64,000 nucleotides of DNA. Source: a virus. Its lineage: Duplodnaviria; Caudoviricetes. Every line of letters starts with the position of its first letter. The first letter of the stretch is position 1. The stretch lies in the IMG/VR virus record IMGVR_UViG_3300026442_000101; one strand, 5' to 3'. The notes beneath the pieces were generated by a model. It saw nothing but the letters and a program-made list of their open reading frames with translations. It made no database searches and was not told where the DNA came from. Made by a program: the position numbers and the translations under genes. Positions 1 to 42,008 of this stretch are shown piece by piece.

Positions 1-118
1 TGTTGAGCGGTCGCAGTTAGGATTTCGGGTCGTACCTAAATTTTCCCCATTGCTGGGCGATGTCCTGATGTAGCGTTTTGGACGATTGCGACACTTTAGC
101 GATACCACGTTGGAAAAT

Positions 119-245
119 AGGTCTCCACCCGTGTTTTCGAGACACGGACCTCACTCATGTACCTGATCCACGCCGAACCCCGAAGGGATGGGCATGTTCG
201 GAATCGAACCGAAAGAGTGCGCTCTACCATCTGAGCTAGGCGGAG
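119..245 (-). ncRNA. Double-headed tRNA-like RNA A: outer tRNA body with a nested permuted tRNA remnant; no anticodon; A-CCU 3' end
   Basis: Minus strand reads CTCCGCC TA GCTC-AGATGGTA-GAGC G CACTC [T TTCGG-TTCGATT-CCGAA CATGCC CATCCC-TTCG-GGGTTC GGCGTG GATCAGGTACAT] GAGTG AGGTC CGTGT-CTCGAAA-ACACG GGTGGAG A CCT. Acceptor, D, anticodon and T stems all pair. Confidence 0.8.
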
Positions 246-252
246 ATAAAAC

Positions 253-978
253 TTACGCGCAGCGGTAGTTCGGGTTCTCGAGAACAACCTCGAGGTCGAA
301 GAACAGCTCGGTCTTGATGCTGGACGGCACGGTGATGGAAAGCAAGGCGCGCTCAGGATCTACCTTCAGGTAGATGTCTTCAGCACCAGGGATGCTGAGG
401 GTGTAGTTCTGAGTACGCTGACCTTCGATCTGCTTGATAGCAGAGAGGTCATGGGACAGCTTGATACCATCGGCCGTGCGGACGTTGTTGAAGCGGATAG
501 CGCCGACGCTGTCGGTCAGATCCAACACGCTGGGATCGCCGAAGCCGAACACGTTGAACTTACCATCGACCAACGGCAGGTTCTTGGCTTCGAGGCGACG
601 CTCGGTAGCGCGGCCAATGCGACGACGCAGGACAGTGGAGTACTTGTCCATGAACGCGCCTTGCTGCATCATCATGTCTACATCGAGATCGGAAAGACCT
701 TCAGGCTTGGCGCCCTGACCCACGTTGTAGAGGAACGAGCACAGACCTTTGTGACGCGCGGTCAGTTGCGCTTGCTCGATAATCATGCGCTGGACATGCG
801 CCGGGCGGCTGTCGATGTGACCGAGCGGCAAGTGATCTTTCAGGAACTGCTCTTCCGATTGCCAGGTTACGTTGCCGGCTTCGTCTTTGACGTTGTAGCC
901 AGGCTTACCATCTTCGCCGGATTGAGACGACCAGGCGAGGACAGTAACGTTCTTGTTCACCAGATAGTTCTGAGTCAT
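253..978 (-). CDS. Hypothetical protein; N-terminal half resembles the crAss001_48-like/DUF2829-associated phage domain
   Basis: 241-aa ORF with phage-like codon usage; GYNV...VTWQSEEQF and VQRMIIEQAQL...L.SFL motifs recalled from that family (not searched). Confidence 0.6.
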   Translation of the reverse strand: MTQNYLVNKNVTVLAWSSQSGEDGKPGYNVKDEAGNVTWQSEEQFLKDHLPLGHIDSRPAHVQRMIIEQAQLTARHKGLCSFLYNVGQGAKPEGLSDLDVDMMMQQGAFMDKYSTVLRRRIGRATERRLEAKNLPLVDGKFNVFGFGDPSVLDLTDSVGAIRFNNVRTADGIKLSHDLSAIKQIEGQRTQNYTLSIPGAEDIYLKVDPERALLSITVPSSIKTELFFDLEVVLENPNYRCA

Positions 979-1007
979 GAAAGATCTCTGCGGGTGGTTG
1001 GATGAAT

Positions 1008-1095
1008 AGGGCGTTCCTCGTGGATTTGAACCACGGACCTTCGGCGTGTCTTTTAGCTAAGGGGCCGACGCTCTAACCAGCTGAGCTAAGGAACG
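1008..1095 (-). ncRNA. tRNA-like RNA B with an 18-nt expanded anticodon loop and C-CCU end
   Basis: CGTTCCT TA GCTC-AGCTGGTTA-GAGC G TCGGC-[CCCTTAGCTAAAAGACAC]-GCCGA AGGTC CGTGG-TTCAAAT-CCACG AGGAACG C CCT. Confidence 0.85.
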
Positions 1096-1100
1096 AGAAT

Positions 1101-1213
1101 AGGGGCTTCCTCGAAGAATCGAACTTCGGACTTCCGCCAGGTATGGTGAGCCTGCCCCATTTAAGGGGCCAGGAGGCTCGAAGACGGCACTCTACCAACT
1201 GAGTTAAGGAAGC
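1101..1213 (-). ncRNA. tRNA-like RNA C with a 44-nt structured insert replacing the anticodon loop and C-CCU end
   Basis: GCTTCCT TA ACTC-AGTTGGTA-GAGT G CCGTC-[TTC GAGCCT CCTG GCCCC TTAAAT GGGGC AGGCTC ACCATACCT]-GGCGG AAGTC CGAAG-TTCGATT-CTTCG AGGAAGC C CCT. Confidence 0.85.
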
Positions 1214-1220
1214 ATGTAGC

Positions 1221-1496
1221 TTAAAGCAAACCTTCCGAGATCATGAACTGTTCGAGGTCATCAAAGAAACCATCGTACAGGATTTCGGTACCGGCAAAAC
1301 CTTTCCAGCGCCACCACTTAGGTTCTTTACCCATAGCGGTGATGCTTTCTTCGGTTTGCTTTCTGAAGAAATTACCGACCTTATCGAACGCAACGAGGTC
1401 GGTGGTGTAGAGATCCCCGTGGACGTGCAGCAGCCTGATTATCTTGGCTTCCAGTTCTGGACTAACCTCGAGTTCTTTCAGTTGCTTATTGCGCAT
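1221..1496 (-). CDS. Hypothetical protein (~91 aa)
   Basis: The ORF-track start (1553) lies inside tRNA-like RNA D; the first ATG outside it is at 1496 (MRNKQLKELE...). Confidence 0.6.
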   Translation of the reverse strand: MRNKQLKELEVSPELEAKIIRLLHVHGDLYTTDLVAFDKVGNFFRKQTEESITAMGKEPKWWRWKGFAGTEILYDGFFDDLEQFMISEGLL

Positions 1497-1513
1497 CACA
1501 AGTTTCTCTGAAT

Positions 1514-1664
1514 AGGGAGCACTGACTGGAATTGAACCAGTGACCTTCGTCAAGTTGGCCTTACGCTCTAACCAACTGAGCTAATCACCCATACGGGCGA
1601 TGCCGGACTCGAACCGGCGACCTTAAGGGAGGGACGACGCTCTACCAAACTGAGCTACAGTGCT
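1514..1664 (-). ncRNA. Double-headed tRNA-like RNA D: outer tRNA split at the anticodon around a complete circularly permuted (Val-like) tRNA body; C-CCU end
   Basis: AGCACTG TA GCTC-AGTTTGGTA-GAGC G TCGTC CCTC CCTTA AGGTC GCCGG-TTCGAGT-CCGGC ATCGCCC GTAT GGGTGAT TA GCTC-AGTTGGTTA-GAGC G TAAGG CCAACTT GACGA AGGTC ACTGG-TTCAATT-CCAGT CAGTGCT C CCT. Pairings cross as AGCACTG/CAGTGCT, TCGTC/GACGA, TAAGG/CCTTA and GGGTGAT/ATCGCCC. Confidence 0.9.
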
Positions 1665-1671
1665 ATTGAAT

Positions 1672-1821
1672 AGGTAACTCTAGCAGGGAATCGAACCCGC
1701 TGCCTTCCTCATGTTTGCGTCTACCAATTCCGCCATTGGCCGATAGTGCCGGCCAAGCAGGACTCGAACCTGCAATCCTTTTCAGGAAGGTGAGGACGCT
1801 CTACCAATGAGCTACAGAGTT
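1672..1821 (-). ncRNA. Double-headed tRNA-like RNA E: outer tRNA with a nested permuted Leu-type (class II) tRNA body; A-CCU end
   Basis: AACTCTG TA GCTC-ATTGGTA-GAGC G TCCTCA CCT TCCT-GAAA-AGGA TT GCAGG-TTCGAGT-CCTGC TTGGCCG GCACTAT CGGCCAA TG GCGGAATTGGTAGACGC AAACA TGAGGA AGGCA GCGGG-TTCGATT-CCCTGC TAGAGTT A CCT. TGGCGGAATTGGTAGACGC plus a variable-arm hairpin is tRNA-Leu-like. Confidence 0.88.
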
Positions 1822-1831
1822 AGAATAAGCG

Positions 1832-2115
1832 CCTGGGGAGGACATTCCCCAGGTCTTGCCACTAATTACCCTAGTGGCCAAGGTGCCTTCATATCGCTTC
1901 AGGCAGGTTTGCGCGGTACTAGCTAGTGTCTGACCATGCTAGAACAGTGCTCGGCATGTGCGGCGCTGGCGCTTCCCTGATAACTCAAAGCCAACAGACT
2001 GGCTCCTCGTCGTCGTAGGGTCTAATGTAACTACAAAGCCTTACGTGCAGCTATAGCGCCTCGGGTAGGGAGGGCACGGGGCTAGGATCTTAGGCTTGGC
2101 ATAGGAGTACCGAGC
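1832..2115 (-). ncRNA. Putative structured non-coding RNA (~285 nt) inside the tRNA cluster
   Basis: No ORF in the track. Long-range helix 2106-2115/1911-1920 (9 of 10 bp), hairpins at 1832-1853 and 1856-1881, and further internal stems. Strand is inferred from the flanking tRNAs. Confidence 0.5.
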
Positions 2116-2123
2116 TTCTGATT

Positions 2124-2201
2124 TGGCAGGGGTAATTGGATTCGAACCAATGATCGCGGCGTCAAAGGCCGCTGCTTTAGGCCAGGCTAAGCTATACCCC
2201 G
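2124..2201 (-). tRNA. tRNA-Gln (UUG)
   Basis: Cloverleaf with anticodon arm GCGGC-CT TTG AC-GCCGC, T arm ATTGG-TTCGAAT-CCAAT and encoded CCA; position 1:72 is C:U. Confidence 0.93.
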
Positions 2202-2209
2202 ATTGAAAA

Positions 2210-2285
2210 TGGCTCCACGACCTGGACTCGAACCAGGGACAGGCGAATTAACAGTCCGCTACTCTACCGACTGAGTTATCGTGGA
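2210..2285 (-). tRNA. tRNA-Asn (GUU)
   Basis: 76-nt cloverleaf TCCACGA...GCGGA-CT GTT AA-TTCGC...TCGTGGA G CCA. Confidence 0.96.
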
Positions 2286-2361
2286 ACAAAGGGTGACCCT
2301 CCAGCCGATCTACGGCTAGTTAAGCGCGCTGCGTAATACGCTGCCTGGCAAGGGTCGTAAA

Positions 2362-2445
2362 TGGTGGATGGGGAAGGATTCGAACCTTCGAAAAATTAAT
2401 GGCGGCTTTACAGGCCGCTCCCTTTGACCTCTCGTGAACTCATCC
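2362..2445 (-). tRNA. tRNA-Tyr (GUA)
   Basis: GCGGC-CT GTA AA-GCCGC arm, Tyr-type D arm, long variable region and encoded CCA; one A:C mismatch in the acceptor stem. Confidence 0.9.
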
Positions 2446-2454
2446 AGATGCAAG

Positions 2455-2530
2455 TGGTAGTACCGAGTGGGATGGAACCACCGACCTTATCCTTATCAGG
2501 GGTGCGCTCTACCAGCTGAGCTACGGCACT
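2455..2530 (-). tRNA. tRNA-Ile (GAU), degenerate
   Basis: 76 nt, loop CT GAT AA, encoded CCA; but the anticodon stem CACCC/GGATA has two C:A mismatches and the T loop is TTCCATC. Confidence 0.75.
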
Positions 2531-2576
2531 ATCTTTCTTACATCTTATCTACACGTTCCGTAAAAATGTACGGAAA

Positions 2577-2885
2577 TCAATGAGATCCCTTCGAGCAACT
2601 CCGGCAACCTTTACAGCCAGGACGAGGAGTACCGGCCTTGATGTTGATGTCGGTCTTCCAGGTATGCGTTGCCCGCTCTACAGGAGATGCGGTGATAGCG
2701 ATCTTCACCTCGACATCTTCAGGATCCAGACCGAGCAGCACCCAGATGATCTCATGAACCTTAGGCTGCATGAGCTCGGTAAGTTCGGCCAGACCTACCT
2801 CAGTGAACGGAAGGTTATTCTCTGCGGCCACGTCTTTGATGACGTTCTCGATACGTTGACGGAAGTCCATGGTTTCTCGGGTCAT
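2577..2885 (-). CDS. Hypothetical protein with C-terminal CxxCxxC
   Basis: 102-aa ORF co-oriented with its neighbours; ends GCKGCRSCSKGSH. Confidence 0.7.
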   Translation of the reverse strand: MTRETMDFRQRIENVIKDVAAENNLPFTEVGLAELTELMQPKVHEIIWVLLGLDPEDVEVKIAITASPVERATHTWKTDINIKAGTPRPGCKGCRSCSKGSH

Positions 2886-2899
2886 TTTGATTTCTCGAC

Positions 2900-2932
2900 A
2901 AAAAAAAAGAACGCGGGGTGGTTAGCCCCGCG
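2900..2932 (-). terminator. Intrinsic terminator
   Basis: CGCGGGG/CCCCGCG stem followed by a T tract on the minus strand. Confidence 0.8.
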
Positions 2933-2941
2933 GCTTGTGGA

Positions 2942-3052
2942 TCAACGCATCAACATGGAGATCGCCATGGTAACTGCCATGATGATCTTCAATCGACACA
3001 TTGCTTTCTTCTGCTTAGCCGTGAATGGCTTGAGCGGAGGTTTATGTTTCAT
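2942..3052 (-). CDS. Small basic/hydrophobic peptide (36 aa, not in ORF track)
   Basis: Hand translation MKHKPPLKPFTAKQKKAMCRLKIIMAVTMAISMLMR*; fills the gap between the upstream ORF and the terminator. Confidence 0.55.
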   Translation of the reverse strand: MKHKPPLKPFTAKQKKAMCRLKIIMAVTMAISMLMR

Positions 3053-3061
3053 AGCTCGTCC

Positions 3062-3280
3062 TCAGATGAGTTCGAGTTTCAACCCATGCTCTTCCAGAGT
3101 GGCGATCAGATCCATCACGTCACGGCGCTGTATCCGACCGAGGCGTTCGTAAGACCCGAGCGCTTCTTCCAGTAGGTCAATCACGCGTTCGGAGTCAGTC
3201 TCTTCAGCGTTCTTGGCCAACATCCACTCAGGGAGTGGTTCATCGGGATTGAGCTCGATGTTTACGTTCATGCCTTCCAT
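3062..3280 (-). CDS. Hypothetical protein
   Basis: 72-aa ORF abutting the upstream stop codon. Confidence 0.65.
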   Translation of the reverse strand: MEGMNVNIELNPDEPLPEWMLAKNAEETDSERVIDLLEEALGSYERLGRIQRRDVMDLIATLEEHGLKLELI

Positions 3281-4203
3281 TAGGTCGGGTTCTCTTCATT
3301 GAGGAGGTATTGGCGAATGCGCGCGACTGGGATGTTGAAGCCGAGGTTATTGATGATCGAGATCTCGCGATCACGAGCCAGCGGACTACGCGCCGCCAGG
3401 TGGCGAATCAGGAACTGCTGTTCATCGACGCGCAGTTCCTTGTAGCCGGTAATGTGCCAGCAGACCTCTTGGGATACTTCGTAGTAGGTCTTCCCACCCT
3501 CTCCAGGAATTCTGAGTCCGGCAAACCTGGAACGGAGATGATGCAAGTTGGACGGCAGGGTCATTGGGAGATCGGCAGATCTATTGAGGACCAGCGAGAT
3601 GAATTCCTCAAGCTCATCCATCCCGCATCTCGAAAACCGAGATTTGATGAACTCACGTTCGCACTCCTTGAGGAGATTGAAGTAAGGGATTTCCGCCAAC
3701 TCGGAGTCGGTAGGGGCAGCTGCGTTTTTCGAGTAACCGCTTGGAGGTCTTTGAAGCCGGCCAGAGTCTGCGATGTGGTACTCCTCGAACACCGATGGTC
3801 CGTTGAGCTTTTCGAAGTAAGCGTAGCAGCGCAGTTGCAGATACCCTGCGATAGATGCCCTGACATTCTTCGGGGCGCAGAATAGTGCGCCGCTGGTGTA
3901 GGCCTTGGCTTCTTCAGCCCCCACTTCTTCCAGCAGATTCCAGAATCCAGAACCGGGCAGTCCGGCGTTGGTGCCCGACTTACGTACGACGAGCGAGGTC
4001 AGGTGCGGCCAGTTCTTCTCGATGCAGAAGTGGAAGATGTGGGTGAGCAGACCGCCGATGGTCTTGGCCATCTGGTTGCCCCTGTTAGGGATGCCCACGA
4101 GACCTGCGAGCTCTTCGTAGGTAGTGGTTCTTCTCTCCATTGCCAGAACGATCAGTCTGGCCGAGATTGTCGAAGTTGCGCTGTGAATGTTATTGCTAGC
4201 CAT
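3280..4203 (-). CDS. Hypothetical protein with putative N-terminal winged-helix domain
   Basis: TTYEELAGLVG...WPHLTSLVVRK...LPGSGFW pattern recalled from winged-helix domains found in nuclease-associated proteins; not searched. Confidence 0.6.
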   Translation of the reverse strand: MASNNIHSATSTISARLIVLAMERRTTTYEELAGLVGIPNRGNQMAKTIGGLLTHIFHFCIEKNWPHLTSLVVRKSGTNAGLPGSGFWNLLEEVGAEEAKAYTSGALFCAPKNVRASIAGYLQLRCYAYFEKLNGPSVFEEYHIADSGRLQRPPSGYSKNAAAPTDSELAEIPYFNLLKECEREFIKSRFSRCGMDELEEFISLVLNRSADLPMTLPSNLHHLRSRFAGLRIPGEGGKTYYEVSQEVCWHITGYKELRVDEQQFLIRHLAARSPLARDREISIINNLGFNIPVARIRQYLLNEENPT

Positions 4204-4251
4204 GTGGCTCTCCTAAACACCGTGTGGTGTCGGTATTGTTAATGCGTAGGC

Positions 4252-5338: not shown

Positions 5339-6184
5339 TTAGTTCAACGTCGCGCCGAACCGCAGATCGGAGAAGATGTCGCGCAGGGTAGCTTCGACTT
5401 CTTCATCGGTCATTGCATTGCCGACCATGGACTGATCGAGAGCGCCGTCTTCGATGACGCGTTCGATATAGTTCTTGAGCGGGACGGAGAACGTCGAGCG
5501 AGGTTGTTCGTCGCTGGTCAGGTAGTGGATGATCTCGTCGCGCATCAGTGCAGGAACGGCTTCCAGCGCACGCTCGACCGCCACGATTGGCGACATATGT
5601 ACGCGAATGGAGCGTGCACGCAACAGCGGATACAGGACTGCCAACTGGAGGTTACGCAACAGGCCGGCAGAGTGCTGGTTGACGTTCGGATCTTTCAGGA
5701 CCAGGTTGGCGCTGGTGAGTTCTTCGATGTAGCGAGATTCCATCACCAGGCAACGGACGCGCGCTGCGGCGATGGCCGCTACGTTCTTCGCCGTGCGCTC
5801 CAGGAAGGTGGCGTAGGTCACGTCTTCCACAAACGGGCTATTCGCCCAGAGGTCTTGAGCGAGGTCGATACCGTAGTGGAGAGTTTCCGGGTAGGTGAAC
5901 TCGAGCGGCTTACCGCCCTTCTCGATGTTACGGAAGTGGTCGAGAATCTCGTAGCCAATCACCTGGATTTTCAGATCACCTTCTTCATAGGTGATTTCGA
6001 TCTTGTCGGCACTTGGGCGCGACAGACCCTGATACTTGCCCGGCGGGTGGGCGTAGAGGAACTGCACCAGATGGTGGTTCTTGATGCCGTAATCGGTCGA
6101 ATGGACCGCGGCCTTGATCGGCATTACACCGCGGTTATTACAGGCTACGTAGATACCTTCAAATACAGGGAATGGGACGTTCAT
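5339..6184 (-). CDS. Hypothetical protein
   Basis: 281-aa ORF with strongly biased codon usage. Confidence 0.8.
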   Translation of the reverse strand: MNVPFPVFEGIYVACNNRGVMPIKAAVHSTDYGIKNHHLVQFLYAHPPGKYQGLSRPSADKIEITYEEGDLKIQVIGYEILDHFRNIEKGGKPLEFTYPETLHYGIDLAQDLWANSPFVEDVTYATFLERTAKNVAAIAAARVRCLVMESRYIEELTSANLVLKDPNVNQHSAGLLRNLQLAVLYPLLRARSIRVHMSPIVAVERALEAVPALMRDEIIHYLTSDEQPRSTFSVPLKNYIERVIEDGALDQSMVGNAMTDEEVEATLRDIFSDLRFGATLN

Positions 6185-6187
6185 GCC

Positions 6188-6784
6188 TTACTCCGTTGCT
6201 TCGATTCGCTCGAAGGTGTAGTAGGTGTGGGACGGAGTCTGGAACTCCGGCGCTTTGGGGTTTGATTCTTTCACGTCACGCAGATGCTGCCGCACCCACT
6301 TATCTTGAGGGAGGCGGAAGTTCTTGATGACAGTATCGTACTTCGGTGCTGTCTTGTGGACCAGCGTCAGGAACACAGTACCGACGATGTCGAGGGCTTC
6401 TTCGTAGATGCTGGCGCCACCGACAAAGAAGATCCACTCGGTGTCGAACGTACGGGCCAGTTCCAGAGCTTCATCGACACTGGACACGCCATAGATTTCG
6501 TTCTCTGGATCATGCACCTCGGAAGCGTATTCCGGCGAGCGGGTGACGACGATACGCTTACGACCGACCATGACAGCCGGCATCGATTCGTGAGTACTAC
6601 GCCCGGAGATGATGACGTTACCCGTGGTCAGGTCTTTGAACCGGGGAAGATCACCTTCGAGTTTCCATGGGATGGTGCCCTTGTAACCTATCTCGCCGTT
6701 TGCAGTAGCTGCGACGATCATGGCGAGTTTCCCTTTGACGGGATCAGCCATTTCCAGTTGGAATCGCGAAAGATCGAGAGACAT
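6188..6784 (-). CDS. folA: Dihydrofolate reductase
   Basis: MIVAATANGEIG..G.IPW.LEGDL..FK..T.G..II.GR.T.ESM, R.RIVVTR and FFVGGASIY motifs. Confidence 0.95.
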   Translation of the reverse strand: MSLDLSRFQLEMADPVKGKLAMIVAATANGEIGYKGTIPWKLEGDLPRFKDLTTGNVIISGRSTHESMPAVMVGRKRIVVTRSPEYASEVHDPENEIYGVSSVDEALELARTFDTEWIFFVGGASIYEEALDIVGTVFLTLVHKTAPKYDTVIKNFRLPQDKWVRQHLRDVKESNPKAPEFQTPSHTYYTFERIEATE

Positions 6785-6861
6785 AGGAATCCAAAATAAA
6801 AAAGTTGGCAGGGGGAAGAAGTCCCACGCTAGGACATAGCCTAGCGCGGGTATGTGAAACG

Positions 6862-8316
6862 TTACTCGAACACGAACCGGAAGGTGGCGTTCTCGAGGCT
6901 GATGGTGACGCCCTCACAAGGCTCGAAGACCTCGTTGTGCAGCTTAGGACCTACTTGGCTTTCCAAGGCCTCGTAGTCGATGTCGGTGATCTTCTGCACC
7001 AGCGCCGAGTCAGGGTAGTGACCAGGGTTGGCGTACAGGGTGATCGTCACGCCAGGCCAGAGCGTGTTGATTGCCGCCTTGATGCCGGAATGACGATTGG
7101 TGCTGAACGCCCACGGGCCGATGTCGACACTGATCTCGCGCGAAATCTCATCGACGTCAACGTTGACCACGTTTTCGTGCTTGGTGATGTCGTTGATGGT
7201 AGTCAGGCTGAACGTAGTGATGGCGTCGCTCAGTTCGACTTCCTTACCAGCGGCAGTCATCACCATGGTAGGCTTGCGCTTGAAGTCCATCTTCCGCAAC
7301 ACGGAGCTCAACGAGTCGACCGAGTGGTCCAAGACACTGGCGCCGAGTATACCAAACGGCGTCGAGAGCTCAAATCCGGTGAGTTCGCGGCGCGCAGAAC
7401 CCAGAGCGCCGACACGGTCCGCAGTCTTGTAGGCGAGCCAGTCGGTATAGTCCAGCGCTTTGAGCAGCTCGATGGCCAGCAGGTTGATCTGCTTGTTCAG
7501 CAAGGCATGGTTGACGACAACGCCATGGCGAGAGGTGAACGAGAAGTCCTGCTCAACACGGAAGTAGAACTTACGAGTGAGTGGCTTGGTACCGTGGGTG
7601 AGGCTGACGTAGTGCGTAGGACGCAGATCAGCTGGAGAGCCGATAGCTGTCCATGCATGCAGGTCGATGAGGGTAATGGTACCCCAATCATGGATCTGCA
7701 TTTCGCCTTCTTCAACCACGTATTTATCGCGCTCTTTGATCATGGCTTCTGCAGTCATGTTGTCAGTCTCAGGATTGATTTCGCGCAGCTTGGTGACTTC
7801 GCCACGCATTACGAGGCTGTAGAACTCAATGAGCGCTTCTGCCTTTTCGCCGACCAGGTCTTCGTACAACTTGTCGTCGAACACTTCACAGAAGTGACAA
7901 TTGTCGGTTTCGAAGACTTTGATCGGGACGCCGTAGCGGTCCTTCTCGAGCTTACGCGTCGACGGCATTTCGAAGTCTGGGAACAGTTGACGGTAATTAT
8001 CGCGCATCTCGTTACATCTGGCCTTGATGTGCGCGCGTGGATCGGCAACATCAGGAGTAACGCTGAGCTTGGTGTACTTACCGTCCACAATGGCTTTGAA
8101 CACCTTTGGCCACCAGGCAGACCGCTGGCTGTCGATGAGACGCTCAGCGACTTCTTGAATGGCGCGTACCTCGAAGCTACCGTTCAAGTATTGGTAAACG
8201 ACGAAGCGCTCGCCCGCTGGCAGTTCTTCGGGTTTGGCAACGGCGACATCTACGGTGTCGAGGGTCGGGTATTTAGCCAGGAATTCTTCGCGGGCAGTTT
8301 GTTTCTTTGCAGTCAT
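6862..8316 (-). CDS. Hypothetical protein
   Basis: 484-aa ORF; no motif recognised. Confidence 0.8.
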   Translation of the reverse strand: MTAKKQTAREEFLAKYPTLDTVDVAVAKPEELPAGERFVVYQYLNGSFEVRAIQEVAERLIDSQRSAWWPKVFKAIVDGKYTKLSVTPDVADPRAHIKARCNEMRDNYRQLFPDFEMPSTRKLEKDRYGVPIKVFETDNCHFCEVFDDKLYEDLVGEKAEALIEFYSLVMRGEVTKLREINPETDNMTAEAMIKERDKYVVEEGEMQIHDWGTITLIDLHAWTAIGSPADLRPTHYVSLTHGTKPLTRKFYFRVEQDFSFTSRHGVVVNHALLNKQINLLAIELLKALDYTDWLAYKTADRVGALGSARRELTGFELSTPFGILGASVLDHSVDSLSSVLRKMDFKRKPTMVMTAAGKEVELSDAITTFSLTTINDITKHENVVNVDVDEISREISVDIGPWAFSTNRHSGIKAAINTLWPGVTITLYANPGHYPDSALVQKITDIDYEALESQVGPKLHNEVFEPCEGVTISLENATFRFVFE

Positions 8317-26961: not shown

Positions 26962-28377
26962 ATGAGCATCTTCAAGCAACTGGCTGGCGCCTCGATGGAA
27001 AGCCTCGCACCGAGCGAGGAAGTCATCGCAGCCCAAGCCCAAGCCGCAGCAGCCGAAGAAGAGCGTGAAGTAATCACCCTCTCCGACGAAATCGACTCCG
27101 ACATCGAAGTTATCGGTGCCATCGGTAACGACATCGAAAAATCCGCCGACGAAGTGTCCAAGGCTTCCGTAGCCTCCGGCGCTATCGAGAATCTGGTTGA
27201 CCAGACCATCGAAACCTACGGCGAAGACGGCATCACCGAACAAGGTGCAGCCATCCTGCAATCCTCGATGGAATCGGTGCTCAAGGCTGCTGGCCTCGAC
27301 ATCCCGGTGTCCATGCTCGTCCCATCGTTCGAAAGCGGTATGACTCGTACCGACTACTCGACCGAAGCCGAAGAGAAGAAGGGCGGCGTCATCAGCCGCA
27401 TCCTGAAGTGGCTGGCTGACGCCTACCACGCTGTGATCGACGGCATCAGCAACTTCTTCACCCGCTTCTTCGTTACTGCTGGTCGTGTCCAGAAGTACGT
27501 CGACAAGGTCAAAGACAAAGTCAACGCCCAGAAGGGTGATGGCGGCGCTGGTGAGATCAGCCTGGGTGGCGAGATCCTCTTCATCGATGGCGGCAACCCT
27601 TCGGCCAGCCTGAACAAGAACGTTCAGGTCTTCCAGAAGTTCGTTCAGCGCTGGACCAGCACCTTCGGCCCTATCGCCGATATCAAGGTCGGTGGTCTGC
27701 AGGAAACCTTCAGCTCCGCTACCAACGCGATGAGCGGCATGATGGAATCCGGCGTTACCCACCTCAAGGGTCTCGAGATCGTTCCTGGCTATTCGGTCGA
27801 GGTGTCGAAAGGCGCCAACAACGAGTTCCCGATGATCGGCGCCAAGCTGAAAGTCGAAGGTAAGGAAAAGCCGAAGGACACCAAAGTCCGTGGCGTTTCG
27901 CTGTCTGATTGCAAGTCCGGTATCGAGGTGTGCGACAAGGCACTGAAAGTCCTGGATGGCATGAAGACCAAGGTCGATGAATGGCTGAAAGATGCCAAGC
28001 GTCTGCAGAAGTGGGCGTCCTCGAATGCCTTCAACCAAAGCATGCTGGCCAAGGTTGAGGATAACGTTCACATGAAGGCTCAGCAGCTTCGTCACCGCGA
28101 CATGCTGAAGTCCGTCGTCGGCGCTTCGCAGGTCATGGCTCAAGGCTGGGCACAGGCAGCTCCTCTGTTCCTGCGCTCCGTCAAGGCGCACGCCGCCTGG
28201 GTTGACCGCAGCTGCCGTGGTTCGGCTGGTCAGGACAAAGATGCTCCTGAGCTGAAGACCATCAAGCCTGATGACAACAAGGCCATCGGCTACGACGCTA
28301 CCGGCAAGAAGAGCACCTCCTACGGCAACGGTAAGGAGCCTGAGAAAGAAGGCACCACTTACCAGAAACGAAAGTAA
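26962..28377 (+). CDS. phiKZ-like internal head protein paralog
   Basis: ASMES, SSMES, PSFES and YSTEAEE followed by VISRILKWLADA. Confidence 0.85.
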   Translation: MSIFKQLAGASMESLAPSEEVIAAQAQAAAAEEEREVITLSDEIDSDIEVIGAIGNDIEKSADEVSKASVASGAIENLVDQTIETYGEDGITEQGAAILQSSMESVLKAAGLDIPVSMLVPSFESGMTRTDYSTEAEEKKGGVISRILKWLADAYHAVIDGISNFFTRFFVTAGRVQKYVDKVKDKVNAQKGDGGAGEISLGGEILFIDGGNPSASLNKNVQVFQKFVQRWTSTFGPIADIKVGGLQETFSSATNAMSGMMESGVTHLKGLEIVPGYSVEVSKGANNEFPMIGAKLKVEGKEKPKDTKVRGVSLSDCKSGIEVCDKALKVLDGMKTKVDEWLKDAKRLQKWASSNAFNQSMLAKVEDNVHMKAQQLRHRDMLKSVVGASQVMAQGWAQAAPLFLRSVKAHAAWVDRSCRGSAGQDKDAPELKTIKPDDNKAIGYDATGKKSTSYGNGKEPEKEGTTYQKRK

Positions 28378-28388
28378 GGGGATGGTGA

Positions 28389-29630
28389 ATGGGCGCCTCG
28401 CTGCTTAAGCAATTGTCGGCAGTGTCGGCGCCACACAAACCTCAAGTTGATCACAGCCTCGAGAGCGCTATCGTCGAGGCTGCTGCCACCGCGGACGGCA
28501 ATATCGAAAGTTTGTCTGATATTGCCGCTACGGTTAATCAACATGTCGGGGAGATCTCGACTGGGATTTGCGTGGCGGACAGTCTGACCGACGTAGTCGA
28601 CAACACCATCGCTATTTATGGCGAAGGCGGTATCGACGAACAGGGTGCTGAGCTTCTCAGGATCTCTGTGGAATCCATCCTCAAGGTAGGTGGTATAAAC
28701 ATCCCTGCCGAGATGGTCGCTCCTTCCTTCGAATCTGTGACCGGTAATTACTCCGCCGAAGTGGCAACCCAGAAGGGTAATGTCATTTCCAGGATCATGA
28801 CCTGGCTGCACGCTGCTCTGCAATCGATCAGCGAATCGATGAAGTCCTTCTGGCTACGCCTCACCAACAGCAGTAAGTCGGTGGAGGAGTACGCTAAGAA
28901 GGTCGCCGAGAGAGTCAAGGCCGTGGATGGCGAGTTGAAGGATCCTGCTGCTACCATCAACGTAGGTGCTGATGCGCTCTGGTTGACTGGTCGTAGCGAT
29001 CATATCTCCAAGCCAGATCGCCATGTCGTGGAAACAGTGGCACGCTTCGAAGACTTCGTCGTCGAATGGCGTAACCTGTGGGGTAGCATCATCGACTTCC
29101 AGTTCCCGTCGCCGTTGAGCGATCCGAAGAACATGGAGGTGTTGAACAAGAAGCTGCATGATCTTGCCGTCTCCACCGTGAAGGGTACCAAGCCTGTCAA
29201 GATCGACATCACCGTGGGTCATGCTATCGACCTCAAGCCAGGTGCTGGCGAAGTCCCGATGCTGACTGCGACCACTAAGGTGGTTGTCAACGTGACGGTC
29301 AAAGACAAGACCGCTCCTGTGCTCACCAAGGATGAGATGAAACACGGTATCGATACCGTGCTCGAAGCCTTCGGTGTGCTGAAGAAGCTGGAGAAGGACA
29401 TGGACAAAGTGGGTCAGACCACTCTGCGTGTCTCCCGGCTGACCAAGAGCGTCTCGGTCAAAGACACCGGTGTCGAGATCAAAGAGAGTGAGCTGCGTCA
29501 AACGCTGAAGGCTCTCTCCAAGGCTTGCGGCTTCGCCTCTTGGGGCTGGACCAACGCCGTACCGTATTACCTCAAAACCCTCAAGGCTTGTGTCAAGTAC
29601 ATTGACGCATCGGCCAGCCGTTACTCTTGA
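28389..29630 (+). CDS. phiKZ-like internal head protein paralog
   Basis: SLES, SVES, PSFES; propeptide closely similar to the 26962 gene. Confidence 0.85.
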   Translation: MGASLLKQLSAVSAPHKPQVDHSLESAIVEAAATADGNIESLSDIAATVNQHVGEISTGICVADSLTDVVDNTIAIYGEGGIDEQGAELLRISVESILKVGGINIPAEMVAPSFESVTGNYSAEVATQKGNVISRIMTWLHAALQSISESMKSFWLRLTNSSKSVEEYAKKVAERVKAVDGELKDPAATINVGADALWLTGRSDHISKPDRHVVETVARFEDFVVEWRNLWGSIIDFQFPSPLSDPKNMEVLNKKLHDLAVSTVKGTKPVKIDITVGHAIDLKPGAGEVPMLTATTKVVVNVTVKDKTAPVLTKDEMKHGIDTVLEAFGVLKKLEKDMDKVGQTTLRVSRLTKSVSVKDTGVEIKESELRQTLKALSKACGFASWGWTNAVPYYLKTLKACVKYIDASASRYS

Positions 29631-29645
29631 TAGAGGATTCACCCA

Positions 29646-30932
29646 ATGTTCGTTCATGACGACGCACTGCAACAAGCCGCGGCCCAGGCGCAACTGGAAG
29701 AGAACCCGACCGCTCTGGTCGAGTGCATGGTCGAAGAAGCAGCCGGTGAGCTGAACAACGCCGTGATCGCCGCTGACGCTTCCGGTCAGGAAGTGGTCAA
29801 GATCGCTGAAGTGACCGAATCGCTCGAGTCCTTCATCCACGGCATCTTCGAGCAGGTTCCTGCTGCCGAGTGGAACGCCAAGGTTGCCCGTCAGTACCAG
29901 GTAGGTGTTGGCTCTATCTTCGCTGCCGCTGGCGTTCCGATGGATTCGCGGATCTACTCCGCCTCCTTCGAAGATGCTGGTAAAGAGCAGACCAACGAAG
30001 AGAACCGCGCCGAGTCCGAGACCAAGGGCAAGAACATCGTCAAGCGCATGTGGGAAGCCTTCCTGAAAGCCCTGGCGTCGCTGGCTAGCAACATCATGCT
30101 GTTCGCCGGTAAAGTCGGTAAGAGCGCCCTGGCCTGCCGTAAGGCCGGCGAGAACCTGTGGGCTCGTGCCAAGAAAGCCAAGGGCACTCCAAAGAAGGAT
30201 ACCTTCGACGGGGCTCCGGCTTGGGGCAAGTACCTGTACAAGAACGGCAGTCAGGGCAAGCCGGCCGCTGCTGTTGCTTCGGCGACCTACGAGCTGATGC
30301 ACGTAGCCGTTCCGACCATCGACGCTTACTCCAAGATGGCCGAAGTCTTCTCCAAGGCCGTTGCCGAAGGCGATGTGCTCGACGACGACAAGTTCTCGAA
30401 AGACCTGAAGGACATCGCCGATGAAGGTGGTGATCTCTTCGGTGGTCAGAAGCTCGAGATCGAAGTCTCCGAAGACAAGCTGGTCCCTGGTATCAAAGCC
30501 AAGATCACCAAGACTGCTCCGGCCGTCAAGGACATCAAAGTCCTGACCATCACCGAGATCAATGAACTCGGTACCGCTATCACCAACGTGGCGGACAGCA
30601 TGGAGAAAGTCGAAGGTGGCGTGAAGGCTGCGGTGAAGGGTCTCGAGAAGATTCGTCGCAACATCCACAGCGCCGCGAATAAAGCGACCCCGACCCGTCT
30701 TCGTTCTTCGCAGCTGTCGGACATGATCAGCAACATCACCTCGATGGCCAAGGTTATCCTGCCTTACTCGGCTAACCTGGTGCAGGACGCCTACAGCCAC
30801 GGCTCCGCTTCGCTGAAGATGTACAAAGGCGACTCGCCGGCTGTTGAAGACAGCAAGGGCGGTGACGAGAAGGAAGTGAAGAAGGAAGAACCGAAGGCTG
30901 GCGACAAAGAGGATGGGAAGAAGGATGACTGA
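29646..30932 (+). CDS. phiKZ-like internal head protein paralog
   Basis: ESLES, ASFED, NIVKRMWEAF. Confidence 0.85.
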   Translation: MFVHDDALQQAAAQAQLEENPTALVECMVEEAAGELNNAVIAADASGQEVVKIAEVTESLESFIHGIFEQVPAAEWNAKVARQYQVGVGSIFAAAGVPMDSRIYSASFEDAGKEQTNEENRAESETKGKNIVKRMWEAFLKALASLASNIMLFAGKVGKSALACRKAGENLWARAKKAKGTPKKDTFDGAPAWGKYLYKNGSQGKPAAAVASATYELMHVAVPTIDAYSKMAEVFSKAVAEGDVLDDDKFSKDLKDIADEGGDLFGGQKLEIEVSEDKLVPGIKAKITKTAPAVKDIKVLTITEINELGTAITNVADSMEKVEGGVKAAVKGLEKIRRNIHSAANKATPTRLRSSQLSDMISNITSMAKVILPYSANLVQDAYSHGSASLKMYKGDSPAVEDSKGGDEKEVKKEEPKAGDKEDGKKDD

Positions 30933-32064
30933 TACTAGCCTGTTTCCCGAAACCCCTGCTGAGGACCTTGGTCCTCTGACCGAAGCCGAAGTAGACGGAC
31001 CGATCTTCGATCCAGTTGACGACGTGCAGTTAGGCGAAAGCGTGGGCAACCTCGAGAAACTCGCTAGCATTACCGAGAGCCTGGAGTCGTACACTGCCAG
31101 GTTCTTGGATACCGTTCCTGCCGACAAGTGGACTGACAAGACCTCGGTGCAGTTTTATACCGGGGCTGGCCAGATCCTCTCGGCAGGGGGTATTGTCCTC
31201 GACACCCCACTCTTCGATCTATCCACCGAAGCGTCCGATAAGGCCGGTATCGGCGGGGCAATGAAATCGTTCTTGGCCCGCTTGTGGGAATCCTTCCGTG
31301 GGTTGCTGGCTATGGTGGTTGACAAAGTCACCCAGCTGGTCGTCAACTACGGGAAGACTTCCAAGGCGGTCAGAAAGATGATCATGGCGATGAATAACTT
31401 GCAAGACAAGTTTCCAGACGCCAACCCGCCTAACGGCATGTCGTTCGACATGGTTCCTTCGTGGTCTGACTACCTGATGTACAAGGGTAACCAAGTATCG
31501 GCGCGTGCTTCTCTTGAGGCCGCGATCGGTATCTTGCAGACCGAGGCTCTGAAGTGGATGGATGCCTTCATCGATCCGGCTGATGCTTGCATCAAGATGG
31601 CGTTGGGCGGTAAGCCAGTTACCATGGAGTACCTGAACACCATCGCAGCACCTCCTTCGAAGACCATCGAATGGCCTGGTGGTACGTCCATTGAATTTAC
31701 AGTGGACCTCACCAAGCCTGGTGGTTCGATCCTGAACACCTCAGTGAGTGTCGTGAAGAATCCTAAGCGACCTCACCGCGTAGATGTCCTGAGCGATGTC
31801 GAGATCAAACATGTGGCTGAACGCATGGAAGATCTGGCTCGCGCCATGAACCTTGTTGAGAAAGGCCTCAAGGCCCGTATCAGCACCATGCAGAGCATCC
31901 AACGCAGGATCGGGAAGGAAGCGCTGCCGGTAAGTCCTGCTGCGATCGCTTCGATGATCAAAAGCATGATTGCCGTGCCTCGCATCGTACTACCAACGTC
32001 TGGCGCACTTGCTCAGAAAGTCTTTGCGCATGCCAACAACAGCATTCGCAGAAACGCTCGATAG
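30925..32064 (+). CDS. phiKZ-like internal head protein paralog
   Basis: ESLES, LSTEA, FLARLWESF; likely start MTDTSLF at 30925. Confidence 0.8.
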   Translation: MTDTSLFPETPAEDLGPLTEAEVDGPIFDPVDDVQLGESVGNLEKLASITESLESYTARFLDTVPADKWTDKTSVQFYTGAGQILSAGGIVLDTPLFDLSTEASDKAGIGGAMKSFLARLWESFRGLLAMVVDKVTQLVVNYGKTSKAVRKMIMAMNNLQDKFPDANPPNGMSFDMVPSWSDYLMYKGNQVSARASLEAAIGILQTEALKWMDAFIDPADACIKMALGGKPVTMEYLNTIAAPPSKTIEWPGGTSIEFTVDLTKPGGSILNTSVSVVKNPKRPHRVDVLSDVEIKHVAERMEDLARAMNLVEKGLKARISTMQSIQRRIGKEALPVSPAAIASMIKSMIAVPRIVLPTSGALAQKVFAHANNSIRRNAR

Positions 32065-39151: not shown

Positions 39152-40447
39152 TCAGTCCTGGAAGACCGACTCTTCGACGTAGGTCAGCACCGAGTCGATA
39201 CGGTCGACCAGGTCGCTCTGGTAGCGATTGAGGCGATCGCACACGCGGCCGAGTTCAGCCACCATGTCGTTCTCGATACGCAGCAAGTCGAGGTAGTTGA
39301 CGTTGTGCGGCAGATCCACACCGTCGTCCTTGTCGTCTTCAGCAGACTTGTTCAGCTGCTGGATGACGCTACGCACCGACTTGAAGGTGGAGGTGGTCGA
39401 ATCGGTGATGCGCTCCAAGGCCTTGACCTGGTCGGTAACGATACCTTCCAGTTGAGCCAGGATCACACCGATCTGATCATTGGTCAGCGATGCTGGCGCA
39501 TCGAGATGCTTGATGAGCATACCGGCGTCAGTAGCCGTGGACGACAACACCGCTTGCAGGATCACGTTGTAACGGTTTTCCTGAATAGCGTAGACCTGGT
39601 TACCCAGCCAGTTCTTCGGCTGGCCATCGAGGATCTTCTTGAGATCCCGCAGCAGGTCTTCGGTTGGGATGTTGATCAACACGTTCTGAGTGGTGTTGCT
39701 GCTCAAGGCGTCGAAGATTCGAGTCTTGATGATCTCAGCCAACCGGTGGTGATATTGCTCAACCACCTTGGTGATCGCAAGGTTGGTCTCGGCGAACTCC
39801 TTCAAGTCCGCACCCGGGTTCTTGCTGTAGCCGTCACCCAGGATCAGGTGCTTGAGCACACCGGAGTTCAGCTTGAGCGGTTTACCACCGGTACCCTTAC
39901 GCTTGGCGATGATGCCGCGCACACGCATGCTGCGCTTGACCAGGCCCTTGGAGCTGTCGTTCAGACGAGAGAAGGACAGAGCCATACGCTCGACGAACGA
40001 ACCCATGGCAGAACCAAAGGACTTGACTGCACCTTTGAACCAGTCGCCAAAGGATTCCATCGACGCTTCGGTTACCGATCCATCAGGACCAGTCTCCAGA
40101 CGCGGCAGATCGGTCTCCAGGATCTTCTCGGCGTCAGCAATGGTAACGTTGGCGATTTCAGCGAAAGCTTCAGCAGCGTGAGCTGGGACGTCCTCAGCGG
40201 CATTCACGGCTGCGGCCACGTTGTGTACCACCGCAGTGGCTGTATCGAGGTCGCGTTGGTCTTCACCCAACTCATGAACTTCGTCCAGAGCATCGGAGAG
40301 CTCAGCACGTTCTTCTTGGGTCTGGATGATCAGTTCGTCGGTGACTTCGTCGGCCCGGACTTCTGGTTCGGGAGTTTCGACGATAGCCGATTCAAAGCTT
40401 GGGGCGCCTCGGAAGGCGTTCCGCAGGGAATTGGAAAAGATGGACAT
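39152..40447 (-). CDS. phiKZ-like internal head protein (gp93/gp95-97 family)
   Basis: PSFES and ASMESFGDWF processing motifs. Confidence 0.8.
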   Translation of the reverse strand: MSIFSNSLRNAFRGAPSFESAIVETPEPEVRADEVTDELIIQTQEERAELSDALDEVHELGEDQRDLDTATAVVHNVAAAVNAAEDVPAHAAEAFAEIANVTIADAEKILETDLPRLETGPDGSVTEASMESFGDWFKGAVKSFGSAMGSFVERMALSFSRLNDSSKGLVKRSMRVRGIIAKRKGTGGKPLKLNSGVLKHLILGDGYSKNPGADLKEFAETNLAITKVVEQYHHRLAEIIKTRIFDALSSNTTQNVLINIPTEDLLRDLKKILDGQPKNWLGNQVYAIQENRYNVILQAVLSSTATDAGMLIKHLDAPASLTNDQIGVILAQLEGIVTDQVKALERITDSTTSTFKSVRSVIQQLNKSAEDDKDDGVDLPHNVNYLDLLRIENDMVAELGRVCDRLNRYQSDLVDRIDSVLTYVEESVFQD

Positions 40448-40549
40448 GGAAGTACCTTTAGTCGAGGCGGCTTGGTAGGCTAAGCTATATTATCAACGGC
40501 ATATAGCGGGGGATCGCTCCCCCGCTATACTTACGGCGCTACAGATCGA

Positions 40550-41947: not shown

Positions 41948-42008
41948 GTGTAAAGCTCCTGAGGAGATTGATTGCGTCGGTGCGCACCGACGGCGTATAC
42001 GCACATCA

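Follow-up and report, generated by a model that had tools for sequence, protein, structure and literature searches.

The window (the whole stretch of 64,000 nucleotides analysed here) opens with a tRNA cluster on the minus strand, which takes up its first 2.6 kb. Within the cluster, ARAGORN and Rfam call tRNA-Ile, tRNA-Tyr, tRNA-Asn, tRNA-Gln and one tRNA with an oversized loop, and neither calls a tRNA at positions 1672–1821, the element described here. The genes in the rest of the window include several phiKZ-like internal head proteins and head-tail joining domains, together with DHFR, thymidylate synthase, thymidylate kinase and a NAPRTase-like protein. These phiKZ-like head-protein, head-tail joining and nucleotide-metabolism genes indicate that the source is a phiKZ-like jumbo phage, and the lack of a sigma-70-type promoter within positions 1–3000 is as expected for such a phage. 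The neighbouring genes, compared across relatives, did not suggest a conserved protein-gene partner adjoining the element; a crAss001_48-like ORF nearby is common only to three related contigs (L041, L059 and L093), and a small ORF at 1221–1553 is not conserved.

The initial annotation had proposed that positions 1672–1821 encode a second nested element of the cluster, in which a permuted class II tRNA head of the leucine type sits inside the anticodon stem of an outer tRNA. On the minus strand of this segment we found every helix that had been named, including the outer stem UCCUCA/UGAGGA, and the MFE fold of the 150-nt window copy is exactly the nested structure, with the inner helices formed. 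The parts of the element, in the 5′ to 3′ order of the RNA, are the following.

1815–1821, minus strand: 5′ strand of the outer acceptor, AACUCUG, paired 7/7 with 1676–1682; positions 2, 4 and 6 are double-changed in phage FLC9.
1813–1814, minus strand: outer U8 and A9, preceding the outer D arm.
1798–1812, minus strand: outer D arm, GCUC-AUUGGUA-GAGC, seen in the MFE fold; its second pair goes from C-G to A-U in FLC9.
1791–1796, minus strand: 5′ strand of the connecting stem, UCCUCA (outer anticodon stem, positions 27–31, plus one extra pair), paired with 1706–1711 in the MFE fold.
1776–1787, minus strand: inner variable-arm hairpin, UCCU-GAAA-AGGA, seen in the MFE fold; preceded by CCU, then UU.
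1757–1773, minus strand: inner T arm, GCAGG-UUCGAGU-CCUGC, seen in the MFE fold and lying within a partial Rfam tRNA match; an A-U pair becomes G-C in FLC9.
1736–1756, minus strand: sealed inner acceptor hairpin, UUGGCCG-GCACUAU-CGGCCAA, paired 7/7.
1717–1735, minus strand: inner U8-G9, then the Leu-type D arm (UGGCGGAAUUGGUAGACGC), assigned by tRNA matches to the 19-mer and near-invariant in 5/5 orthologues.
1712–1716, minus strand: single-stranded linker AAACA, the 3′ part of the outer anticodon loop, with A34-A35-C36 at 1715–1713.
1706–1711, minus strand: 3′ strand of the connecting stem, UGAGGA, from the MFE fold and the pairing in orthologues.
1684–1705, minus strand: outer variable loop AGGCA and outer T arm, with T loop UUCGAUU; in the window the stem has 3 bp and a bulged alternative register.
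1676–1683, minus strand: 3′ strand of the outer acceptor, (C)UAGAGUU, with one bulged base, compared across orthologues.
1672–1675, minus strand: discriminator A, then CCU; no CCA is encoded.

A single G sits between the outer D arm and the connecting-stem strand UCCUCA, and the inner part ends, from 5′ to 3′, with the sealed acceptor, UG, the D arm GCGGAAUUGGUAGACGC, the linker AAACA and the strand UGAGGA. The two bodies share one stem, of which five base pairs are retained in 5/5 orthologues (with a U-A to U-G change in FLC9). While the helices stood as described, two details of the outer body had to be corrected, namely its T arm, which is irregular in the window (3 bp and a bulge), and the 3′ strand of its acceptor, which is bulged. 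In the orthologues, the outer T stem is a regular, covarying stem of 5 bp (GGGGG/CCCUC, ACGGG/CCCGU and UGUGG/CCACA), and in 5/5 of them the outer acceptor has 8–9 nt on its 3′ side compared with 7 nt on its 5′ side, leaving a bulge of 1–2 nt. At the 3′ end, A-CCU is shared by the window, L041, L059 and L144, and FLC9 differs, with A-ACA. CCA is encoded by the canonical decoding tRNAs nearby, and genes for CCA-adding enzymes were not found in the related phages.

By energy, the nested fold of the window copy is weak (z = −1.87, with 6 of 200 shuffles folding equally well), and the z value of the orthologues is about −0.8. When the orthologues are folded, the outer arms, connecting stem and sealed acceptor all reappear in the MFE structures, whereas the inner T and D arms are lost; the evidence for these two arms therefore comes from covariation and tRNA motifs and not from energy. 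Could the same arms belong to two cloverleaves lying side by side? We rejected this tandem arrangement because it yields 3 + 3 acceptor pairs, compared with 7 + 7 in the nested pairing. A tmRNA was also rejected, as ARAGORN made no tmRNA call. When the inner part is de-permuted and supplied with a 7-nt loop in silico, ARAGORN reads a complete class II cloverleaf of 89 nt, and when the outer part is supplied with such a loop, it reads a cloverleaf of 76 nt, so that both bodies are complete save for the anticodon loop. The acceptor, D and T arms and the elbow nucleotides (G18G19, T-loop UUCRA, U8 and A14) are present in both. Instead of the 7-nt, U33-containing loop on a 5-bp stem that a canonical tRNA carries, the element has an insert of ~80 nt that opens the loop, and Rfam RF00005 gives a partial match of 25.3 bits at 1757–1814, below the threshold of 29.

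An unannotated homologue was found by BLAST in the cultured Burkholderia phage FLC9, on the minus strand of LC667451.1 at ~129229–129378; BLAST gave no further match to the element among 50,697 phage records. Two pattern scans of IMG/VR added L041, L059 (identical to L093 and L164) and L144, and one metagenome scan yielded nothing beyond a duplicate of L059 and unrelated tRNA-Leu genes with long inserts. Including the window copy, this Leu-head (B-type) family comprises five distinct sequences from about three lineages. Within the five, both partners have changed in 13 of 39 pairs without loss of pairing. The sealed acceptor of FLC9, for example, reads CUGCGCG-UUCG-CGCGCAG, with three pairs double-changed relative to the window and all seven still paired, and compensatory changes between the two phages were also observed in the inner T stem, outer D stem, outer T stem and outer acceptor.

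Furthermore, in an alignment of 13 nested elements that was fitted to a covariance model, and hence favours that model, 96.3% of the cells are paired, compared with 37–43% in a control with the partners slid, and both this control and the hand-checked helices agree with the alignment. Compensatory changes occur at 29 of the 39 pairs, and the observed values were reached by none of 500 shuffles. This covariance model, which was built from four B-type sequences, scored the B-type orthologues at 88–171 bits, the sibling nested elements at 44–91 bits and ordinary tRNAs at 30–47 bits. Viral contigs yielded 124 sites at which a Leu D arm follows a T loop; at these sites, the number of putative sealed-acceptor pairs is bimodal, with 13 sites at 7/7 compared with ~0.1 expected. 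These results indicate that the predicted architecture is kept, with compensatory changes, in distantly related phages. The fold, the orthologues in four other phage sequences and the compensatory changes in many helices together support the proposal of a second nested tRNA-in-tRNA RNA.

The same data make it extremely improbable that the element is a decaying, functionless relic of rearranged tandem tRNA genes. Its arms indeed follow one another in the order of two tandem tRNAs, the T stem of the outer body is degraded in the window, and an acceptor-swapped tandem in contig L025 is a possible intermediate; yet all seven helices are held by compensatory changes across distant phages, A35-C36 and the inner D arm are conserved position-specifically amid variable flanks, and the place of the element in the cluster is retained in the orthologues. 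We therefore disfavour this reading.

Some parts of the element do vary. A search for homologues with a conserved variable arm had been suggested, and such conservation was not borne out; the hairpin is present with differing sequences in the window, FLC9 (UUUGC-GUUC-GCAAA) and L144 (CCCC..GGGG at the equivalent place) and is missing from L041 and L059, where a 6-nt loop is left and the connecting stem is extended by GUUU/AAAC. The loop that seals the inner acceptor ranges from 4 nt (UUCG) in FLC9 through the 7 nt of the window to 20 nt, with a hairpin of its own, in L144, whose sealed stem carries two mismatches.

The inner head appears to derive from a different tRNA parent than that of the neighbouring nested element, as had been proposed. 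Its 19-nt D arm is carried by 85 distinct ARAGORN tRNAs at the retrieved loci, which comprise 72 Leu, 6 His and 3 Asn among others, and its 5′ half is Leu in 24 of the 25 best matches. The 19-mer is invariant in the five orthologues except at one Y position, a conservation that is partly a selection effect in that the two pattern scans were anchored on this 19-mer, while FLC9 came by BLAST. The head also retains U8, A14, A15 with U48, and G18G19, and its D loop has the length found in E. coli tRNA-Leu.

In its layout (variable region, T arm, loop-closed acceptor, D arm and closing stem), the inner head matches the tRNA-like module of YrlA, a likeness that had gone unseen in the initial annotation, although its description of a nested tRNA head was correct. 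YrlA has been described as a circularly permuted tRNA with a closed acceptor stem (PMC4201824) and is a crystallographically confirmed tRNA mimic (bioRxiv 10.1101/312249), and its tRNA-like module has been proposed to bind elbow-recognising proteins (PMC4201824; bioRxiv 10.1101/312249). The YrlA Y RNAs (RF02553), which occur in bacteria and mycobacteriophages, and the phage element share the permuted order of T arm, loop-closed acceptor and D arm, with a closing stem replacing the anticodon arm. Neither YrlA nor the phage inner head has an anticodon loop or a free CCA end, and YrlA is often encoded among tRNA genes.

The module is also found in bacteria. In a prokaryote scan with one genome per species, the combination of T arm, sealed acceptor with 7/7 pairs and Leu D arm was present at eight loci. 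In Streptomyces mirabilis it lies ~55 nt upstream of a 540-aa TROVE-domain ORF, and the copy in a Trueperaceae genome, 1.7 kb upstream of rsr, folds into a long bulged stem bearing a small hairpin, the T arm, an acceptor sealed by UUCG and the Leu D arm. The Rfam YrlA model misses both of these modules. Thus, the Leu-type sealed head, as predicted from sequence, is a recurring module of a known structural class.

Is the phage element then a true Y RNA that pairs with a host-supplied Ro60 (Rsr)? The YrlA layout of the inner head and the Leu-type layouts upstream of the TROVE ORF and of rsr would fit such a role, but several differences make it very unlikely. The closing stem of 5–6 bp opens into the four-way junction of a second full tRNA body, and no long basal stem with a Ro60-binding motif was found; the D arm is of the tRNA-Leu type and not the class I consensus; and the inner head (~1712–1790) gave no match to RF02553 (gathering threshold 69 bits) up to E = 10. 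Moreover, a TROVE (Ro60) gene was not found in the FLC9, RTH11, FLC4-3B, L144, L041 and L093 contigs, and tblastn with two bacterial Rsr proteins detected no Rsr-like frame in the 64-kb window.

The closed acceptor could itself be a processing site. In vivo, the M. smegmatis YrlA, whose closed acceptor measures 7 bp, undergoes RNase P cleavage and acquires CCA (PMC4201824), and the window copy has the corresponding 7-bp stem and a 7-nt loop. Opening of the sealed 7-bp inner acceptor by RNase P would produce a two-piece RNA with two tRNA-like acceptor ends, both able to gain CCA. The orthologues, however, make this improbable. The stem of FLC9 is closed by a stable UUCG tetraloop, and L144 has a structured 20-nt loop in addition to its stem mismatches, so that the sealing loop is not conserved as a leader or trailer; nor is there a conserved discriminator.

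Could the sealed Leu-type head bind or sequester LeuRS? It had been stated as established that bacterial LeuRS recognises the elbow, the variable region and the discriminator largely without the anticodon. For E. coli LeuRS, the independence from the anticodon and the crucial role of A73 hold, whereas the variable region is dispensable; the enzyme needs A73, the A15-U48 pair, G18G19 and A20a and works without the anticodon arm or the variable arm, and G73 in tRNA-Ser is an antideterminant for it (PMC9976931). The inner head offers the tRNA-Leu type D arm and much of the elbow set (U8, A14, A15 with U48, G18G19 and the E. coli tRNA-Leu D-loop length). On the other hand, its acceptor is closed and it has no free 3′ end and hence no free CCA, and the equivalent of position 73 is G, G, U or A in the orthologues. 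The head could at most act as a non-chargeable LeuRS competitor, and binding of LeuRS or of another anticodon-independent tRNA binder as its main function is unlikely. The variable hairpin is gone in L041 and L059, class I aaRS genes were not found in the related phages, and the D arm is shared by some tRNA-His and tRNA-Asn genes of phages, all of which argue further against this function.

The linker AAACA, which follows the inner D arm and had passed unremarked, directs attention to the outer body. The five bases ahead of the 3′ strand of the outer stem read N-A-C-N-N in 13/13 aligned nested elements, A35-C36 being constant and positions 33, 34, 37 and 38 varying. The outer anticodon loop is therefore not removed but opened on its 5′ side, with positions 34–38 retained, a remnant that the initial annotation had missed. 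U is never found at position 33, where the orthologues have A, A, A or G. The triplet is AAC in the window element (1715–1713), L041, L059, FLC9 and L144; in the siblings, it is AAC or CAC with class I heads and UAC or AAC with reduced heads. Four loop-expanded relatives, read by eye, carry an N-A-C triplet as well, GAC (1011–1095) and UAC (1104–1213) in the window cluster and CAC in FLC9 and FLC4-3B. All the N-A-C triplets of the nested and loop-expanded elements are valine anticodons. The paralogues could owe their N-A-C to one common ancestor.

The main determinants of ValRS are A35, C36 and A73, and the valine tRNA-like structures (TLS-Val) of plant viruses combine A35/C36 with either A73 or C73 and accommodate sizeable stem-loop insertions (PMC9976931). 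The phage family has A or C as its discriminator, with A in 5/5 B-type orthologues. We infer that the outer body is of the valine type from the position-specific conservation of N-A-C only; sequence similarity and the sequence of the anticodon stem give a mixed isotype that does not point to tRNA-Val, and the minor ValRS determinant G20 is missing from the outer body. The phage element and TLS-Val, as in TYMV (PMC9976931, PMC7749636), are both viral, non-decoding tRNA mimics that keep A35 and C36 at an anticodon-like site (in the phage element, AAC followed by two nucleotides and then the stem) and tolerate big inserted stem-loops. TLS-Val, however, forms the 3′ end of an RNA genome, has a pseudoknotted acceptor and has been shown experimentally to be valylated (PMC9976931, PMC7749636), whereas the phage element is a small-RNA gene in the tRNA cluster of a DNA phage, has a normal 7-bp acceptor and an opened anticodon loop and is a candidate for valylation.

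The retained anticodon raises the further question of whether the inner body is an intron-like insert, the excision of which, with ligation of the exons, would yield a functional tRNA-Val, possibly together with a circular permuted tRNA. The valine anticodon and positions 37–38 do remain beside the stem, FLC9 encodes an RtcB ligase, and the permuted tRNA genes of algae are matured via circular intermediates. Nevertheless, no join yields a U33 loop in all orthologues, the inner head itself lacks anticodon-loop bases, and neither a bulge-helix-bulge nor group I features were found in the element. Among the related phages RtcB is encoded only by FLC9, with RTH11 and the L144 contig lacking it, and bacteria, to our knowledge, have no splicing endonuclease. 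A spliced intron, which we regard as highly unlikely, was rejected on the lack of a consistent U33 and of splicing motifs.

The sibling nested elements of the window (~1513–1664 and 120–245) have the same outer scaffold, N-A-C remnant, N-CCU 3′ end and cluster position. Their heads are of class I or of a reduced type, and only the Leu-element has a Leu D arm and, in 3/5 orthologues, a class II variable hairpin. In the sibling, two stems are stacked, whereas in the Leu-element one stem is common to both bodies. The family looks modular, with one scaffold bearing an enlarged loop, a hairpin, a reduced head, a class I head or a Leu-type head.

Taking these observations together, we see about an even chance that the element is a gene for a stable, non-decoding, two-headed tRNA mimic on a valine-type scaffold that acts as a bivalent decoy or tether. 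The predicted RNA cannot decode because its anticodon loop is opened and lacks U33. From the location of the element within the cluster, and from an outer acceptor and T arm that are both intact, the RNA would be expected to be released from the cluster transcript by host tRNA-processing enzymes, with RNase P cutting at the outer 5′ end. The 3′ end, encoded as N-CC plus a U, would be trimmed back to N-CC and completed by addition of A. The outer body would then serve as a natural tRNA scaffold that confers stability, and it may be read by valyl-tRNA synthetase via A35, C36 and A73, like the plant-virus structures, making it a possible ValRS substrate. The sealed inner head, which would not be consumable since it has neither a 3′ end nor an anticodon, would present a Leu-type tRNA elbow to some tRNA-recognising protein. 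Consequently, the RNA could hold or titrate host tRNA-binding proteins, outside decoding, as a bivalent tether or decoy. We give far lower odds to opening by RNase P, to a Y RNA for host Ro60, to a spliced intron and to a dead relic than to this bivalent decoy or tether.

A broader version of the bivalent reading can be put forward, although we think it rather unlikely. Nucleus-forming jumbo phages may carry chargeable valine-type scaffolds with interchangeable cargo, the Leu-type member of which would engage two host enzymes (for example, ValRS together with LeuRS or an elbow reader) and thereby blunt or rewire translation-linked or tRNA-targeting defence.

Two further kinds of RNA invite comparison. 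In the tRNA scaffold of Ponchon and Dardel, a structured cargo reportedly replaces the anticodon loop, and the tRNA body is said to give processing and nuclease resistance. Cargo at the anticodon loop is common to this engineered scaffold and the phage element; the latter, however, is natural, its cargo is itself a tRNA body, and its anticodon loop is partly retained. In the permuted tRNAs of Cyanidioschyzon merolae and in two-piece tmRNAs, the 3′ half lies upstream of the 5′ half and a short sequence at the acceptor end links the two. Permuted tRNA and tmRNA genes (permuted tRNAs are listed in PMC4238349) mature to working RNAs, whereas the inner body of the phage element has no anticodon loop, tag reading frame or splicing motif, and joining its ends does not restore an anticodon stem-loop.

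We found no description in the literature of a tRNA body nested in the anticodon loop of another tRNA in phages. The parts, tRNA mimics and the YrlA module, are known; what is new is their nested combination, with a Leu-type head on a valine-type scaffold. The original YrlA survey (Chen et al. 2014, PMC4201824) discarded matches that overlapped tandem tRNA genes, and such nested elements would therefore have stayed hidden in it. If our interpretation is true, phages have made tRNA genes into modular non-decoding RNAs, with a tRNA chassis for a second sealed tRNA body, and tRNA mimicry by DNA phages extends past spare decoding tRNAs. It would also join bacterial Y RNAs, the valylatable tRNA-like structures of plant viruses and engineered tRNA scaffolds, which have hitherto stood apart, and a bivalent scaffold would amount to Y-RNA-like tethering with a tRNA, not Ro60, as the second handle. 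Direct tests of the idea are feasible, since Burkholderia phage FLC9 is available in culture. Finally, the Leu-type modules of Streptomyces and Trueperaceae point to unannotated Leu-type Y-RNA-like genes beside Ro60 genes that the Rfam model has passed over.

The valine anticodon is retained in all four of the other tRNA-like genes of the window cluster that lack an anticodon loop, and in each of them the anticodon stem resumes, with its 3′ strand, exactly two bases after this remnant. The sequence N-CCU ends all four genes; the four decoding tRNAs of the cluster encode CCA.

120–245, minus strand, tRNA-like gene without anticodon loop, remnant UAC
1011–1095, minus strand, tRNA-like gene without anticodon loop, remnant GAC
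1104–1213, minus strand, tRNA-like gene without anticodon loop, remnant UAC
1515–1664, minus strand, tRNA-like gene without anticodon loop, remnant AAC

The sealing loop of the inner acceptor in the Leu-type element (1743–1749) contains GCACU, the complement of AGUGC, which the neighboring nested element has in its 3′ acceptor strand (1515–1521); this match probably reflects chance or common ancestry.

Furthermore, we observed that the module of T arm, sealed acceptor and Leu D arm recurs in further IMG/VR phage contigs, where it lies within tRNA clusters and is closed by a plain stem with no tRNA body. None of these plain-stem modules reached the YrlA gathering score.

Contigs and loci bearing the plain-stem module
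L111:4977–5125; L055; L097/L053/L061/L088; L037:11880–12004
L050:1469–1552; L054; L058:7883–8032; L118

Permuted, sealed Leu-type heads were also found just upstream of bacterial Ro60 genes, and Rfam RF02553 detected neither of them at E-values up to 0.001. They are probably members of a Leu-type subclass of Y RNAs that have escaped annotation.

L238:2493–2544, Streptomyces mirabilis, head just upstream of a TROVE/Ro60 ORF (2600–4222)
L236:4023–4072, Trueperaceae MAG, head upstream of a TROVE/Ro60 ORF (5793–7385)

An acceptor-swapped tandem in a 359-kb IMG/VR contig (L025:10253–10413, minus strand) carries a Leu-type D arm on its outer body, UCCG closes its inner acceptor, and each half keeps its own anticodon-like hairpin. 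This arrangement may represent a step on the way from tandem tRNAs to the nested design.

A pattern scan of IMG/VR also returned tRNA-Leu-like and tRNA-Leu genes. In L141, L128, L151 and L142, which are tRNA-Leu-like genes with free ends and mostly with A73, the anticodon arm is shortened to a stem of 3–4 bp that ends in a GNRA or GACAA loop. Judging by the work on minimalist tRNA-Leu that PMC9976931 cites, RNAs of this form could be leucylated but would be unable to decode. The phage tRNA-Leu(UAG/UAA) genes of L140, L147, L137 and L131, with a variable loop of only ~6 nt, are type I tRNA-Leu, the same type as that of Streptomyces coelicolor (PMC6614811).

Between tRNA-Gln and the Leu-type element lies an ORF-free stretch of ~285 nt (1832–2115, minus strand), for which Rfam returned zero matches; similar stretches occur in the tRNA clusters of the related phage FLC4-3B and of L144. 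It is terminated by a GC-rich, 8 bp hairpin (1853–1832) followed by GCUUAUUC, which resembles CCUAUUC, the heptamer that trails the mimics of the window. In an unrelated viral contig that is GC-rich (L048:4257–4421, L078:1021–1185), nothing but the same heptamer separates two tRNA genes, and it may be a processing signal common to both settings.

Elsewhere, the window carries six paralogous genes for phiKZ-like internal head proteins in two groups (26962–32064 and 39152–42004) and, from 6 to 20 kb, DHFR, a long thymidylate synthase fusion, thymidylate kinase and an NAPRTase-like gene.
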